56,638 nucleotides of DNA from NCBI GenBank assembly GCA_045657225.1, contig JAZOSR010000033.1:1-56638 (forward strand). Reading direction: 5' to 3'. The position numbers were made by a program, and so were the translations under genes. The notes below the pieces were generated by a model, which searched no databases, was not told where the DNA came from, and was given only the letters and a program-made list of their open reading frames with translations. This DNA comes from Eubacteriales bacterium. Its GTDB lineage: Bacteria; Bacillota; Clostridia; Oscillospirales; CAG-272. Of the stretch, positions 39,756 through 44,375 are shown piece by piece. The first letter of the stretch is position 1. Every line of letters begins with the position of its first letter.

Positions 39756-40229
39756 TCATTTTTCCGCCGCAAAGCGCCGATTTTTAAATAAAGGAAGTAT
39801 CTTTAGTAAAAGTCGCATCGCCACGGTTGCAACGATAATGCCGACTGCCAGTGCCGTCGCATTCTGCAGCGTGGCGAGTCCTTTTTCAAGAAAGCCCTCG
39901 ACGTTTTCACCAAGCGCGTTTGCCATGGTGTAGTAAAGCAAGGCACCGGGCATCATGGGTATCAGGCAGGGCGCAATAAATACCGTTGCGGGGGATTTTA
40001 AGACGCGTGCCATCAGCTCGGCATAAAAGGAGACCGTCATGGCGACGATAAAATGACATAGCACCCTGCTGTCGATCGCAAGGCAAAGCAGCAAAAAGAG
40101 TGCTCTTCCGAAGCCGCCGCCAAGCGACACAGCCAGCAGCTTCTTGACCCCACGCACGTTAAACAAAACGGCAAAGCCAAGAGCACCGATCACGGAAGCG
40201 ATAATTTGTATCACATCAGTCATGGTCAT
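39756..40229 (-). CDS. ThrE-family exporter, small subunit
   Basis: GFAVLFNV, ARVLKSPATVF and IPMMPG. Confidence 0.85.
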   Translation of the reverse strand: MTMTDVIQIIASVIGALGFAVLFNVRGVKKLLAVSLGGGFGRALFLLLCLAIDSRVLCHFIVAMTVSFYAELMARVLKSPATVFIAPCLIPMMPGALLYYTMANALGENVEGFLEKGLATLQNATALAVGIIVATVAMRLLLKILPLFKNRRFAAEK

Positions 40230-40981
40230 AGCACCTGCCCTCCCGTCAAAAAGATAAAGGCAAAATAGCCCGCCGCAATGGCAACGGCAGACAGGGTCGC
40301 TTCAAGGAGGCGCAAAATGCCCGCAATGCTATCTCCCGTGAAGAGGTCACGCAGGGCGTTGGTGAAGCCAAGCCCCGAAATGATCAGCATGATATTGCCG
40401 ATGATGATCTCGTCGGGTGTTGGCACAGCACCCAAAAAGACGAAAAGATACGCAAGCGAGGTGATGGTGAACGAGGACAGGAACTTGGAAAATATCACGT
40501 TGCCCACAACCTTGCCCGAAAACAAAATCGAAAAGCGCACGGCAACGCCGATCAGCGCGGATAAAAGTGCATCGACCGCGCCGCCACCGAAAAAGACGGT
40601 AAAGGCGGCAGCAATCACGGCATACGCAAGGCACTCTACCCCGAAGGGATAGACCTTAGCGCGCCCGATCTCTTGGATCTCCGCCCGGATCTCCGTAAGG
40701 GAAAGCCGCTCGGCACACACACGTCTTGAAAGAGCATTCAGGCGGTCAAGACGGTGAAAATCAAATTTTGCCCCGCCAATGCGGCGTGTTTCGGTATAAA
40801 CGCTTCCATCATCGCCGTGAATCGTCACGACCATGCTGCTCGTGATGATAAAGCAATCGACGCGCGCGGCACCAAGGGCAGTGCACATTCTCCCCACACT
40901 GTCCTCCACACGGTGCACCTCCGCACCGCAAACGAGCATCCGCTCGCCAATATCCATCACGCAATTAAGACGTTCCTTCAT
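40226..40981 (-). CDS. ThrE-family exporter, large subunit
   Basis: GAEVHRVED, LNALSR, FFGG and GLGFTNALRDL. Confidence 0.88.
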   Translation of the reverse strand: MKERLNCVMDIGERMLVCGAEVHRVEDSVGRMCTALGAARVDCFIITSSMVVTIHGDDGSVYTETRRIGGAKFDFHRLDRLNALSRRVCAERLSLTEIRAEIQEIGRAKVYPFGVECLAYAVIAAAFTVFFGGGAVDALLSALIGVAVRFSILFSGKVVGNVIFSKFLSSFTITSLAYLFVFLGAVPTPDEIIIGNIMLIISGLGFTNALRDLFTGDSIAGILRLLEATLSAVAIAAGYFAFIFLTGGQVL

Positions 40982-41014
40982 TTTATGCATCCTTTTTTTA
41001 CTTTGTACGCCCGT

Positions 41015-41047
41015 AGTGAAGTTGCTCGCTTTGCTCACAGTGAAGTT
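41015..41047. repeat. AGTGAAGTT direct repeat pair with a short fold-back spacer
   Basis: AGTGAAGTT at 41015-41023 and 41039-41047 (24-bp period). Confidence 0.6.
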
Positions 41048-41597
41048 AGCTCTTTTTTATAATTATTTTATTATCTATTACATCAATGTCTAAATCTTCA
41101 TTGTCTTGCAAATTCAGTTCTTCGCAAATCCATTTAGGAATTTTTATTAAACTATTAGAAAACATATGAGTTTTCTTTCGCTTTATTAATAAGGTTTCAC
41201 GAGTTACATGTGGAATCAATCCACAATCTATCGCGGAGTAAATTGTATTTTTAGAAAGTGGCGCATTCGGATGATTTTTACTATGAAGCCAATCCACTAT
41301 TTCTTCTACTGACAGTTGGTCTTTTATAATTAAATCAGAAACGCACTTAGCCAAACCTGTATCTAACTCAAAAATTTTTTGTCTTCTCTTCTCACTTTTT
41401 CGTTGTTCATATTCTTTTTGGGCGTATTCTGCGCTATACCTTCCTAGCGCTTTACAACGATTTATCTCATAATAAATAGCCGGATTGGTCTTACCTAAAT
41501 ACTCTGCTATACGATATGCCGGCATTCCGACATTACACATGTTTTCTATAAACTTTCTTTCCTCGTAGGAAATTCTTTTATAACTATTTTTCATCAT
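41046..41597 (-). CDS. IS30-type HTH domain fused to an AbrB/MazE-like C-terminal domain; no DDE domain
   Basis: YKRISYEERKFIE..IAEYLGK..IYYEINR..YSAEYAQ..LSVEEI..SKNTIYSAI (IS30 N-terminus-like); IKIPKWICEELNLQDNEDLDIDVIDNKIIIKK (AbrB-like). Confidence 0.7.
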   Translation of the reverse strand: MMKNSYKRISYEERKFIENMCNVGMPAYRIAEYLGKTNPAIYYEINRCKALGRYSAEYAQKEYEQRKSEKRRQKIFELDTGLAKCVSDLIIKDQLSVEEIVDWLHSKNHPNAPLSKNTIYSAIDCGLIPHVTRETLLIKRKKTHMFSNSLIKIPKWICEELNLQDNEDLDIDVIDNKIIIKKS

Positions 41598-41652
41598 ATA
41601 AAGCCCGCTGTTTCACACATTATCTCCGCTTTAAAATCTTGACGCTATCCGC

Positions 41653-41997
41653 TTACCCCTTCGCAGTGGTGATAGAGGCGATCAATCTTCTTCTAATCGA
41701 ACCACATTTATTACGCAAATCTTTGTAAGCTATCTCCATCATCTTTCCTTTTCTAAAAATCAATTCAAGCCAATATTCTGTTTCCGAGCACTCTTTTAAC
41801 GAGATTTCAAGCTTGTTTATAAAATCCGCTTTGCTCTGTGCGTATTTTGCTTCGTGGATATTTGCTCCTATAGACGACGAAGAGCGAACAATTTGATTGA
41901 CGTAAACAGAACAACCTTTAATTTCGTCGCAAATGTCGGATATTTGAATGGCAAATTCTATGGCGTCTTCTCGCAGGTGGTTCTTATTATCATTCAT
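41653..41997 (-). CDS. Four-helix-bundle protein (23S rRNA IVS / Avd-like family)
   Basis: NQIVRSSSSIGANIHEAKYAQSKADFINKLEISLKECSETEYWLEL signature; AGAAAGGA RBS before ATG 41997. Confidence 0.9.
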   Translation of the reverse strand: MNDNKNHLREDAIEFAIQISDICDEIKGCSVYVNQIVRSSSSIGANIHEAKYAQSKADFINKLEISLKECSETEYWLELIFRKGKMMEIAYKDLRNKCGSIRRRLIASITTAKG

Positions 41998-42020
41998 TTT
42001 GCAAAAATCCTTTCTTTTCG

Positions 42021-42303
42021 TCAATATGTTCGCCATTGGTGTACTCGATATCAATGCCTGTGGCATGTCGATATGTTCGCCATTGGCGAACTCGATATGT
42101 TTTCGCTACGCTCAAACTCGATATTTGCTCGCGTTGCGAGCAATCGATATGTTGCCTTCGGCAACGATGAGCGCTATGCGCTCTGACGCGCCCTTTTGTT
42201 ACTTCTCTCGCGTTGCCCGATAGGCAACGCATATCGAGCGCGCAGCGCCATATCGAGCCGCCGCAGGCGGCATATCGAGCGACGCGTCAGCGGCGCATAT
42301 CGA
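42021..42303. repeat. Two-armed array of TCGATAT-tagged variable hairpins
   Basis: TCGATAT at 42021 (TCAATAT), 42045, 42068, 42092, 42118 and 42144, each followed by a hairpin; ATATCGA at 42231, 42250, 42272 and 42297, each preceded by a hairpin. Confidence 0.92.
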
Positions 42304-43717
42304 CGTCGAATCCGCGTGTCAAGGACACGACGGACTCGACGTGCCCCGTCCTCGGGAACAAATCCACCGGCGTCACCTCTCCAATCTCATAACCAAGCTC
42401 GCGGAGAATCGCGCAATCGCGCGCGAGCGTATCGGGTCCGCAGGAAACGTAGACAATGCGCGGCACGCGGCGCGCGGCAAGGAAGCGCAGCAGCCCCTCG
42501 TCACAGCCCTTGCGCGGTGGGTCAAGCACGACCACGTCGGGATAAAGCGTGCCGCGCTCCTGCTCGGCTGCGGCAAGCAGTCCCTCGGTATTGGCGGCAT
42601 CGCCGCAGTAAAAGCTCGCGTTTTTGACACCGTTTAGTGTCTTATTAATATTTGCGCAGCGAATGGCGTCGGGCACGATCTCAATACCAATGAGCTCTCC
42701 CACACGCTCTGCCATCGAAAGCCCGATCGTCCCTGCGCCGCAATAAAGATCAAGCAAAAGTCCCTCGCCCGAAAGACCTGTTTGCTCGGCGGCAATACCG
42801 TAAAGGAGCTCCGCGGCATCGTGATTGACCTGATAAAAGGAGGCGGGCATCACGCGGAAGCGCTTGCCGCACAGCACGTCCTCTATGTAAGGATTTCCGT
42901 ATAACGTATGGTATTTTTCGCCAAGCACCACGTTGGTGCGCTTGGTGTTTTCATTCACCACCACCGAGCTCACCCGAGGGAATTTTTGCAGCAGCTCTCC
43001 CACGAATTCGAGGGCAAAGGGCAGCTCTTTTCCATTCAGTACGGGGCAAACCATCAGCTCGCCCGTGTTTTTTCCCTCGCGCAAATAAAGATGGCGCAAA
43101 AGCCCCGTTCCCGTTTCCTCATCGTACGCCGCGACACCCTTTTGGGTGTAAAATTCGCAAAAGAACGAGAGGATCTCACCGAACACGGTCGGCTGAAGGG
43201 CGCACGCGCTCGCCTCTACGACACGGTGCGTTTTTTGTGCATAAAAGCCGCCGAAAAGCCCGTTTTTGCCACCCGTTATGGGATATTCCGCCTTGTTGCG
43301 GTATCCGCGCACCTCACCCGTGCTCCTCACGGGCAAAACCTTAACGTCCGAGAGCCCTGCCTTGCGAAAGCAATGGGTCACGTAATCCTGCTTTAACTGC
43401 AGCTCGCGCGCGTACGTAAGATGCCGATAAACACAACCGCCGCAGGAAAGGGATGCGGAACAAAACCCCTCCTCGCGATCGGACGAAGGGGCAAGCACCG
43501 TCAGTAGCCTTCCTACGGCATAGGTCTTATTTACCTTGATCAGTTCAATTTTTGCGGTATCACCCGCGACGGCACCCGCAACAAACACGGCGCGGCCGTC
43601 GGGCAAGCGCCCGACACCGCAGCCAAGATTATTAAGATCCGCAATTTCAACCGTCAGCACCGCTCCCTTTTGCAAATAAGTGGCAGAACGGGGCTCTTTT
43701 TGCACAAAATCAGACAT
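42287..43717 (-). CDS. rlmD: 23S rRNA m5U1939 methyltransferase (RlmD/RumA)
   Basis: TRAM domain, C..CGGC cluster, YRNK, SFYQVN, LDLYCGAGTIG, LDPPRKG, YVSC and DLFPRTGHVE. Confidence 0.92.
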   Translation of the reverse strand: MSDFVQKEPRSATYLQKGAVLTVEIADLNNLGCGVGRLPDGRAVFVAGAVAGDTAKIELIKVNKTYAVGRLLTVLAPSSDREEGFCSASLSCGGCVYRHLTYARELQLKQDYVTHCFRKAGLSDVKVLPVRSTGEVRGYRNKAEYPITGGKNGLFGGFYAQKTHRVVEASACALQPTVFGEILSFFCEFYTQKGVAAYDEETGTGLLRHLYLREGKNTGELMVCPVLNGKELPFALEFVGELLQKFPRVSSVVVNENTKRTNVVLGEKYHTLYGNPYIEDVLCGKRFRVMPASFYQVNHDAAELLYGIAAEQTGLSGEGLLLDLYCGAGTIGLSMAERVGELIGIEIVPDAIRCANINKTLNGVKNASFYCGDAANTEGLLAAAEQERGTLYPDVVVLDPPRKGCDEGLLRFLAARRVPRIVYVSCGPDTLARDCAILRELGYEIGEVTPVDLFPRTGHVESVVSLTRGFDVDMRR

Positions 43718-44375
43718 AAAACTCCTCGCCCGTTTCAAGGCAAAGGCAGGCAAGCGCACCGCCGTCTTTTTTACCGCAGTCGATGCGAATGACATTGCCG
43801 TCGCGCTCGATCTTACCGCTCGCGGTCGGTGCGTGACCGACGATCACGGCATCATATCCCCCATAATTCTCGCGCTCGGGCGCGGTAAAGAAATCCTCGG
43901 GGGCGTAATCGTCAAGATTCTTGCCCTCCTCGTAGTCAAGAATGCCCGCATGCACCAGCAAAAACTGCTTGCCGCCCGCCTCGACCTCCTCAAAGAGCGA
44001 AAATTCCGAGAGATAGTCGATCATGCCCTCTCTCATATCCTCGTCAAGCGCACGGAAGCCCTCAAGCGTCACGTTGCCGCCGTCCGCCGTCCACGCCACC
44101 ATCTCGGCGGCAAAATCGGCATCGGGTGCGGCACCGCTTTTCAGCATACGGTCAAAGCCCGAAAGCATACGAAGCGCCACGTAGTCGTGCTCGCCCGCGA
44201 TCGGATAGACGTTTTCGCACATGCTGAGGTCCGTGAGGAGCGCGGCACTGTCCTCGCCGTAATCCACCACGTCACCCAGCAAATATAAAATATCCTTCTT
44301 TGAAAGCTTAATTTTCTTTATCATTTCACGGTAAGCCGCAAGGTCACCGTGCAAATTTGCCATTACGTAGGTCAT
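43710..44375 (-). CDS. Calcineurin-like metallophosphoesterase (PrpA/ApaH-like, degenerate motifs)
   Basis: NLHG, LGDVVDYG, GEHD, VHAG, VGHAP and IDCG. Confidence 0.8.
   Translation of the reverse strand: MTYVMANLHGDLAAYREMIKKIKLSKKDILYLLGDVVDYGEDSAALLTDLSMCENVYPIAGEHDYVALRMLSGFDRMLKSGAAPDADFAAEMVAWTADGGNVTLEGFRALDEDMREGMIDYLSEFSLFEEVEAGGKQFLLVHAGILDYEEGKNLDDYAPEDFFTAPERENYGGYDAVIVGHAPTASGKIERDGNVIRIDCGKKDGGALACLCLETGEEFYV

Follow-up and report, generated by a model that had tools for sequence, protein, structure and literature searches.

A two-armed array of heptamer-tagged hairpins upstream of a PF05635 four-helix-bundle gene hints at an unrecognised protein-plus-repeat cassette

The window, i.e. 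the whole stretch of 56,638 nucleotides analysed here, carries between two genes of its minus strand, rlmD/rumA and a gene for a four-helix-bundle protein (4HB) of the PF05635 family, a 283 bp array in which a heptamer tag alternates with hairpins of differing sequence. Arrays built in the same way on other tags were found upstream of the remaining PF05635 genes of the same genome and of PF05635 genes in related genomes. Together, the array and the 4HB gene hint at an unrecognised protein-plus-repeat cassette; for the best explanation, in which a tag-reading 4HB protein and its two-armed array make up such a cassette, the arguments on either side are about evenly balanced.

Anatomy of the array and of the 3' end of rumA

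The features of the region, given in positions of the window, are the following.

42287–43795, minus strand: rlmD/rumA, 23S rRNA m5U methyltransferase, assigned from profile matches
42303–42342, minus strand: terminal hairpin H0, 17–19 bp, fold of -29.7 kcal/mol
42021–42303 (283 bp), between rlmD/rumA and the 4HB gene: two-armed array of tags and hairpins
42207–42303, minus strand: gene-distal arm, four units, on the minus strand reading TCGATAT + hairpin
42166–42206, no strand: centre separating the two arms, containing a single untagged hairpin
42021–42165, minus strand: gene-proximal arm, six units, on the minus strand reading hairpin + ATATCGA
42045, 42068, 42092, 42118 and 42144, plus strand: exact tags
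42231, 42250, 42272 and 42297, minus strand (ATATCGA on the plus strand): exact tags
42021–42027, plus strand: tenth tag, with one mismatch (TCAATAT), the sixth tag of the left arm
42008–42013: ribosome-binding site of the 4HB gene, TCCTTT on the plus strand
41653–41997, minus strand: 4HB gene, 114 aa, PF05635/TIGR02436, start codon at 41997

Read in the sense of the genes the order is H0, four units of tag and hairpin, the centre, six units of hairpin and reverse-complement tag, the ribosome-binding site and the 4HB start. The ten heptamer-tagged hairpins in two opposed arms that a first-pass annotation of this DNA had described were recovered, nine with an exact TCGATAT and one with a single deviation, together with all six of its listed stems, which differ in sequence yet pair (e.g. 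GTTCGCC/GGCGAAC, ATGCC/GGCAT, GTTGCC/GGCAAC and GCCGCC/GGCGGC). Its placing of the array end a few bases from the ribosome-binding site also held, the degenerate last tag (42021) being 7 nt away. Missing from it were H0, which was found on follow-up, the untagged hairpin of the centre (GAGCGC TAT GCGCTC, ~42169–42183) and the location of the rumA stop codon within the first array unit. Successive tags of the left arm start 24, 23, 24, 26 and 26 nt apart; for the right arm the intervals are 19, 22 and 25 nt. The spacers between the tags are mutually different in sequence, each of them self-pairing. When comparing homologous loci, the gene-distal arm was found to be conserved with L026, L082, L089 and L014, and the gene-proximal arm to contain four to six units.

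On both strands of the window TCGATAT occurs exactly 13 times, compared with a mean of 6.45 in shuffled sequences, and nine of the 13 copies, five plus-strand and four minus-strand ones, fall within 42045–42303. Among 139 loci with at least one pair of tags in the same orientation 91 are true hairpin arrays, and of their 402 inter-tag spacers (294 distinct) 340 possess a terminal stem of at least 4 bp, compared with 0.6% of shuffled spacers. A chance origin was rejected from the excess of tags and from the pairing of the spacers, and the spacer hairpins are, judging by these sequences, under selection. A CRISPR array was also rejected as a candidate, the repeats being 7 nt long (at least 24 nt by definition) and the spacers palindromes of 12–19 nt (non-palindromic by definition); the nearest genes on either side (40226–44375) gave Pfam matches only to ThrE, HTH_38, 23S_rRNA_IVP, methyltransferase/TRAM and phosphoesterase.

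The hairpin H0 is shared with the reading frame of rumA. Its 5' arm consists of the rumA codons for VESVV(S) and its 3' arm encodes an added RumA tail, the stop codon (42287–42289) lying within the first array unit, and the last ~8 codons of rumA come from H0 and this unit; the native C-terminus in array-free relatives reads ...HVESVVCLTRK/R. At each array-bearing rumA locus examined a long hairpin takes its 5' arm from the last codons of the gene, and its 3' arm tracks the local synonymous codons, giving compensatory changes between loci (AGTCCG/CGGATT in the window, AAAGTG/CACTTT in L082 and AATCTG/CAGATT in L267). Folded over comparable stretches of 48–58 nt, hairpins of the H0 type reach -16.5 to about -30 kcal/mol, while the same region of four array-free rumA loci folds at just -5 to -11. 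A survey of the genus revealed arrays at 12 of 29 assessable rumA 3' ends, representing five tag classes and each with an H0 fitted to the local rumA codons; an intact 4HB gene adjoins five of the 12, a truncated remnant two (L276 and L282) and no 4HB gene three, and the other two are cut by a contig end. By eye, a conserved element of ~70–75 nt was also seen ~100–400 nt past the rumA stop codon in L261, L269, L273, L276, L280, L281, L285–L287 and L289, located directly upstream of quite different post-rumA genes in congeneric genomes, with the array present or absent. This element may be a cassette leader or the mark of a recombination site at a hot spot.

DNA homology between the window locus, L026, L082 and L089 runs from a few bases off the 4HB stop codon (41658) to ~90 nt inside rumA (42376–42387), and the unit of 4HB gene and array shows an identity of 90–94% for the protein and 74–81% for the DNA. 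RumA of the window is just 46–48% identical to that of L082 and L089, so the unit is far better conserved than its host gene. The array and the 4HB gene could be a compact cassette of ~0.7 kb (41658–42387) seated at the rumA 3' end, a reading that shares the even balance of the explanation to which it belongs.

The 4HB gene and an adjoining HTH/AbrB gene form an AT-rich island (GC 0.30–0.40, with ~0.55 around it). The HTH/AbrB gene (41046–41597, minus strand, in the island at 41000–42100) encodes a protein of 183 aa with an IS30-type N-terminal HTH (HTH_38) and an AbrB-like C-terminus; it lacks the transposase core and gives a partial match, below cut-off, to an IS30 transposase model. Among the homologous cassettes it was seen at the window alone, and it is therefore placed outside the unit of 4HB gene and array.

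To our knowledge, a function of the PF05635/TIGR02436 family is known only for Avd, through its role in diversity-generating retroelements. The 4HB protein of the window matches PF05635 with 76.5 bits (E 2.2e-21, cut-off 33.8) and TIGR02436 with 86.6 bits (cut-off 24), and its predicted structure contains four helices (pLDDT 85.5). The best fold match is 2RLD (Bacteroides BT_0352; TM 0.88, 44% identity) and 2GSC was also found, chains A–E of both being among the matches, while the Avd chains match weakly (8UB7_B with TM 0.80 at E 0.27, 4DWL_D with TM 0.62). The accessible text of PMC10053308 describes PF05635 as resembling Avd.

Tag arrays upstream of PF05635 genes

All four PF05635 genes of the window genome (G000) have a two-armed tag-hairpin array of their own upstream, and the four tags are all different: TCGATAT, GATGATAT, GTGATGT and TATGGAATC. 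PF05635 is a large family: in the order, 71 of 151 genomes possess it, a single genome having as many as 10 copies, and the matches total roughly 180. To compare with background, 113 upstream regions of 450 nt from 4HB genes of the order and 4116 windows of G000 were scored for repeated heptamers in both orientations. One heptamer occurred at least four times in 88 of the 113 regions but in 363 of the 4116 background windows, and at least five times in 63 and 63 of them, respectively, so that the enrichment of arrays near four-helix-bundle genes expected by the first-pass annotation is borne out in the window genome as well as order-wide. A crude classifier sorted the 113 regions into 39 hairpin-spaced, six contiguous tandem, 43 unclear and 25 repeat-free; among 17 undetected or weak regions inspected by eye, six hold imperfect hairpin arrays and most of the rest contiguous tandem repeats. 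Seen from the side of the 91 TCGATAT arrays, the 4HB gene is the commonest neighbouring reading frame (six within 21 bp and two more within 1 kb) and rumA the second most recurrent.

In a protein tree the 4HB clades map to tags, with the orientation kept constant (tag + hairpin in the distal arm, hairpin + reverse complement in the proximal arm). The six TCGATAT loci form one clade, its nearest neighbours in the tree carry GCGATAT and GTGATAT, and further clades carry GTGATGC, AATGAAG, ATGAAAT and ATGAATT; the core tag GTGAAGT is common to three separate clades. When counting by genome, arrays of the type described by the RNA family Gut-1 (see below) and PF05635 genes occur together in 55 of the 151 genomes, arrays only in nine, the gene only in 16 and neither in 71, an odds ratio of 27 among genomes that are kin. 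Because the array adjoins the gene and the genomes are kin, common descent confounds both the covariation of tag and protein and the co-occurrence, and the covariation could in part be plain co-descent of adjacent DNA. The proposed co-variation is thus upheld in so far as tags track 4HB clades, and is weakened by the sharing of GTGAAGT and by descent.

Outside the order, 18 PF05635 loci were examined in three Bacteroidota and two cyanobacterial genomes. Contiguous tandem heptamers were found upstream of the gene in at least four copies in 11 of the 18 and in at least five copies in seven, and reverse-complement heptamers are often located downstream of it. The PF05635 genes of the cyanobacterial assemblies L294 and L297 are flanked by long tandem-heptamer runs, with five copies upstream and five reverse-complement copies downstream in L294 and 16 and five, respectively, in L297. 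Their heptamer resembles, and is possibly the same as, one of the classical short heptamers known to be repeated in tandem in cyanobacteria. In L296 (G190, a Bacteroidales assembly) TCGATAT itself was observed upstream of a PF05635 gene, with eight complement copies downstream, the hairpin spacing of the window array being absent.

Solo arrays, strand asymmetry and alternative explanations

When 61 related genomes were searched for three gapped tags in succession, 14 of them, the window genome included, gave a hit, and the control, the same pattern written backwards, hit one genome; a scan of one genome per species gave at least 120 stretches, mostly in gut Clostridia assemblies. TCGATAT arrays nearly always have two opposed arms, typically of four units each, and other arrays are located directly after tRNA genes and terminators. 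Solo arrays are in the majority: Gut-1 gives 575 matches and PF05635 roughly 180 in the same 151 genomes, which means that arrays outnumber 4HB genes about threefold and mostly stand alone. Several genomes possess multiple near-identical solo copies, in varied gene contexts and frequently where a contig ends (at least 10 places in G005, three in G026). A 4HB protein at least 90% identical to that of the window was found, among the 61 genomes, in G000 and G006 only, and none with at least 60% identity in G005, G026 or G009, which are rich in solo TCGATAT arrays. These two findings, together with the confounding by descent, weigh against a picture of one protein and one array. The adjacent protein-repeat module of the first-pass annotation, with its putative recognition of the array by the protein, is partly supported, by the association, the paralogue-specific tags and the behaviour of the cassette, and weakened by the many arrays that lack a 4HB gene.

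Some further contexts were observed. One flank of the solo TCGATAT arrays (~90–130 nt with a hairpin of its own; L017:5746-5906) is a very abundant dispersed repeat in the genus and supplied most of ~190 matches, which are spread over 32 of 40 genomes and frequently lie where a contig ends. Two small genes of G038 are each enclosed by arrays in direct orientation (L011:5277-6439, an XRE-type HTH, and L012:5703-7647, a 432-aa ATPase-like protein), a layout that is reminiscent of gene cassettes. In G000 (C13:160-5280) GTGAAGT and ATGAAAT arrays with near-identical leaders bracket a reading frame of 1286 aa, and the pair adjoins a fragment of a tyrosine-recombinase-like gene.

The two arms differ in how well they fold on a given strand. 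On the gene-sense strand the loops of the distal arms are of the T..C type in 29 cases and of the G..A type in three, and those of the proximal arms G..A in 29 and T..C in three. For the 239 distinct parsed spacers of the TCGATAT class, read as hairpin then ATATCGA, 101 loops are G..A and one is T..C, mostly closed by C-G (GAA 28, GCAA 11, GTCA 10, GTTA 9 and GCA 9), and the internal mismatches on this strand comprise 77 G.A/A.G, two T.C/C.T and seven G.T wobbles; these counts are non-independent, many spacers being variants of one recurring unit. The strand-specific folding suggested earlier is in line with both asymmetries. C-G-closed GNA and GNNA loops are exceptionally stable mini-hairpin motifs in DNA, and the loops GUCA and GUUA are nothing special in RNA. 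Between the array and the 4HB gene of two paralogues a promoter close to consensus was recognised by eye, placing those arrays outside the 4HB mRNA. The G..A loops, the G.A mismatches, the stability of such loops in DNA and the position of these promoters favour folding as single-stranded DNA, which, going by sequence, is probably the molecule in which the hairpins form. As a single strand the whole element can also be folded onto itself, so that the tags of one arm pair with those of the other and the hairpins stand out as side branches (z -8.1 for the window as RNA), and the corresponding fold-back of a solo array as DNA gave z -9.3.

The arrays might instead be independent non-coding RNAs with a structure of their own, the status proposed for Gut-1, with 4HB genes just sharing their landing hot spots at tRNA and rumA 3' ends, and this we consider unlikely. 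The accessible text of Weinberg et al. 2010 (PMC2864571) presents Gut-1 as a likely non-coding RNA of unknown function, from human gut sequence only, and mentions no partner gene. Gut-1 (RF01706) consists of three small hairpins separated by a repeated GUGAAAU-like heptamer and occurs in gut Clostridia, an architecture of small hairpins and one repeated heptamer that the window array follows, but it describes one arm only, as RNA, and the window array has another tag. The model aligns to the distal arm upstream of the 4HB gene in L186 (56.8 bits) and to arms of several arrays of the window genome (C13:267–339 with 54.5 bits), and its 575 matches, in 64 of the 151 genomes, far exceed the number of 4HB genes. 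The window array itself was not among the Gut-1 matches of its own genome at E up to 10, the threshold for membership being 50 bits, and an Rfam search of 40500–43500 gave no RNA family over the array at E up to 1 and no rRNA. The claim of an undescribed module holds only in part, one arm of sister classes being already in Rfam as Gut-1. A reading as RNA also draws on the good fold of the whole element as RNA, on the many arrays directly after tRNA genes and terminators, and on the solo TCGATAT arrays, whose centre by eye resembles an extended -10 element and whose far end carries a hairpin and a T-run. Shared hot spots, however, leave the clade-specific tags and the four different tags of the paralogues unexplained, the C-G-closed G-N(N)-A loops belong to the complement of the strand read as Gut-1, wobbles of the G.U type are infrequent, and the favourable loops are confined to the 3' arm of either strand, which a single transcript does not need.

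It is similarly improbable, in our estimate, that the arrays are REP- or MITE-like mobile DNA moved by an unlinked nuclease that reads hairpin and tag on single-stranded DNA, the 4HB gene being a passenger or accessory. A hairpin with a short single-stranded tag is the type of substrate used by HUH enzymes (IS200/IS605, REP/RAYT), and the array unit conforms to it. The near-identical solo copies in G005 and G026 and the likeness of the two inverted arms to terminal inverted repeats fit such a mobility, and the 4HB remnants beside the arrays of L276 and L282 indicate that array and gene are separable. With REP/BIME elements the array shares the unit of short tag and hairpin, inverted arrangements and strand-specific folding; it differs in its highly diverse stems, in being tied to a 4HB gene and in being present once in its genome, where 291 copies of TCGATAT on both strands of 1.88 Mb contain a single cluster of three or more (other tag classes reach up to five copies). 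A genome-wide REP family was therefore rejected for the window genome. The first-pass annotation had named tracking with a RAYT-type transposase as the alternative to be feared, and against it the profile of the Y1 transposase (PF01797) gave no match in G000, G005 and G009, which carry arrays and are 80–85% complete; one match barely above cut-off (25.3 bits) was found in G026 and three in G038, the completeness of the genomes searched being 80–97%. Moreover, no neighbour beyond 4HB and rumA recurs among the 91 loci. The inverted arms agree with what is expected of a MITE, but a clean empty site or a target-site duplication could not be defined around the solo array L017, the flanks of which are non-collinear in relatives, its left flank being the abundant dispersed repeat described above.

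It is very unlikely that the array simply acts in cis on the transcript of a rumA-4HB operon, as a stabiliser, a processing site or a translational leader, and lacks a protein partner specific to its class: it does lie between co-oriented genes, with the long stem of H0 at the extreme end of the rumA frame, the last tag close to the ribosome-binding site and, in a scan of 40900–42500, promoter and terminator sites no commoner than in shuffled sequences and none convincing inside the array, but this would explain neither the invariance of the tag within arrays and its differences between classes, nor the paralogue arrays upstream of a 4HB promoter, nor the solo arrays in unrelated contexts.

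Proposed function and relation to known elements

In the preferred explanation, a cassette of array and tag-reading protein, the heptamer tag would be what the 4HB oligomer encoded by the same cassette recognises, each class having its own tag, and the variable hairpins would act as structural spacers that fold in single-stranded DNA and present four to six tags per arm. Five chains are present in the crystals of solved relatives of this protein. The well-folding units, hairpin then ATATCGA, would sit in the 3' arm of each strand, which makes the element two-fold symmetric, and a single strand could also fold onto itself through pairing between the tags of opposite arms. As a guess at its purpose, the cassette may regulate itself and/or be a selfish unit, kin to the intervening-sequence elements of 23S rRNA, that serves its own maintenance or movement. 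As a working analogy only, TRAP is a ring-shaped homo-oligomer that reads spaced triplet repeats in the trp leader; the likeness lies in a ring homo-oligomer and a short motif regularly spaced in a single strand, but the proteins are unrelated, the nucleic acid is here probably DNA and binding by 4HB is putative.

Two known systems containing relatives of the 4HB protein were compared with the window. For diversity-generating retroelements, Guo et al. in 2011 and Alayyoubi et al. in 2013 have reportedly described Avd and the hairpin that follows the variable repeat. The four-helix-bundle fold, the order of target gene 3' end, hairpin and avd-like gene, and the strand-dependent function of the hairpin in these retroelements are points of likeness; the closest structures to the 4HB protein, on the other hand, are the uncharacterised 2RLD and 2GSC and not Avd. 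A diversity-generating retroelement was rejected for the window, a search of G000 (83% complete) for the reverse transcriptase profile PF00078 giving no match and the neighbours of the 4HB gene being HTH/AbrB and rumA. The intervening sequences of 23S rRNA are said to carry an S23p/PF05635 reading frame (Ralph and McClelland, 1993). They share with the window element the gene family and the company of inverted repeats, but the latter is situated between rumA and a protein gene, outside any rRNA gene, with both arms upstream of the gene and tags spaced by hairpins.

A literature search found no paper linking the PF05635/TIGR02436 family to repeat arrays, the supplements of PMC2864571 and PMC10910872, which may bear on novelty, lying outside it. 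Six cas-less interspaced-repeat systems are described in PMC10910872, in the accessible main text of which the PF05635 family is not named, and the term "23S rRNA IVP" is used there in the legend of a figure about CRISPR adaptation modules.

Tentatively, and with less confidence than for the cassette of the window, the reading may be extended to the whole family. PF05635/Avd-like 4HB proteins would then be sequence-specific readers of tags of 7–8 nt that lie in arrays next to the genes of the proteins themselves, spaced by hairpins in gut Clostridia (Gut-1) and contiguous in Bacteroidota and cyanobacteria, where they are possibly the classical cyanobacterial repeats, and gene and array together would be unrecognised, self-contained and horizontally moving cassettes, kin to the 23S rRNA intervening sequences, that settle at the 3' ends of tRNA and rRNA-related genes. 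Should every 4HB protein prove to read the tags of its own array, the PF05635 family and Gut-1, an orphan since 2010, would gain a testable function and the strand-specific mini-hairpins would be explained. There would then also be a natural series of small proteins that differ in the short sequences they recognise, with a code that could be read from pairs of protein and tag, and a novel type of small cassette that has settled time and again in the same places beside stable-RNA genes.
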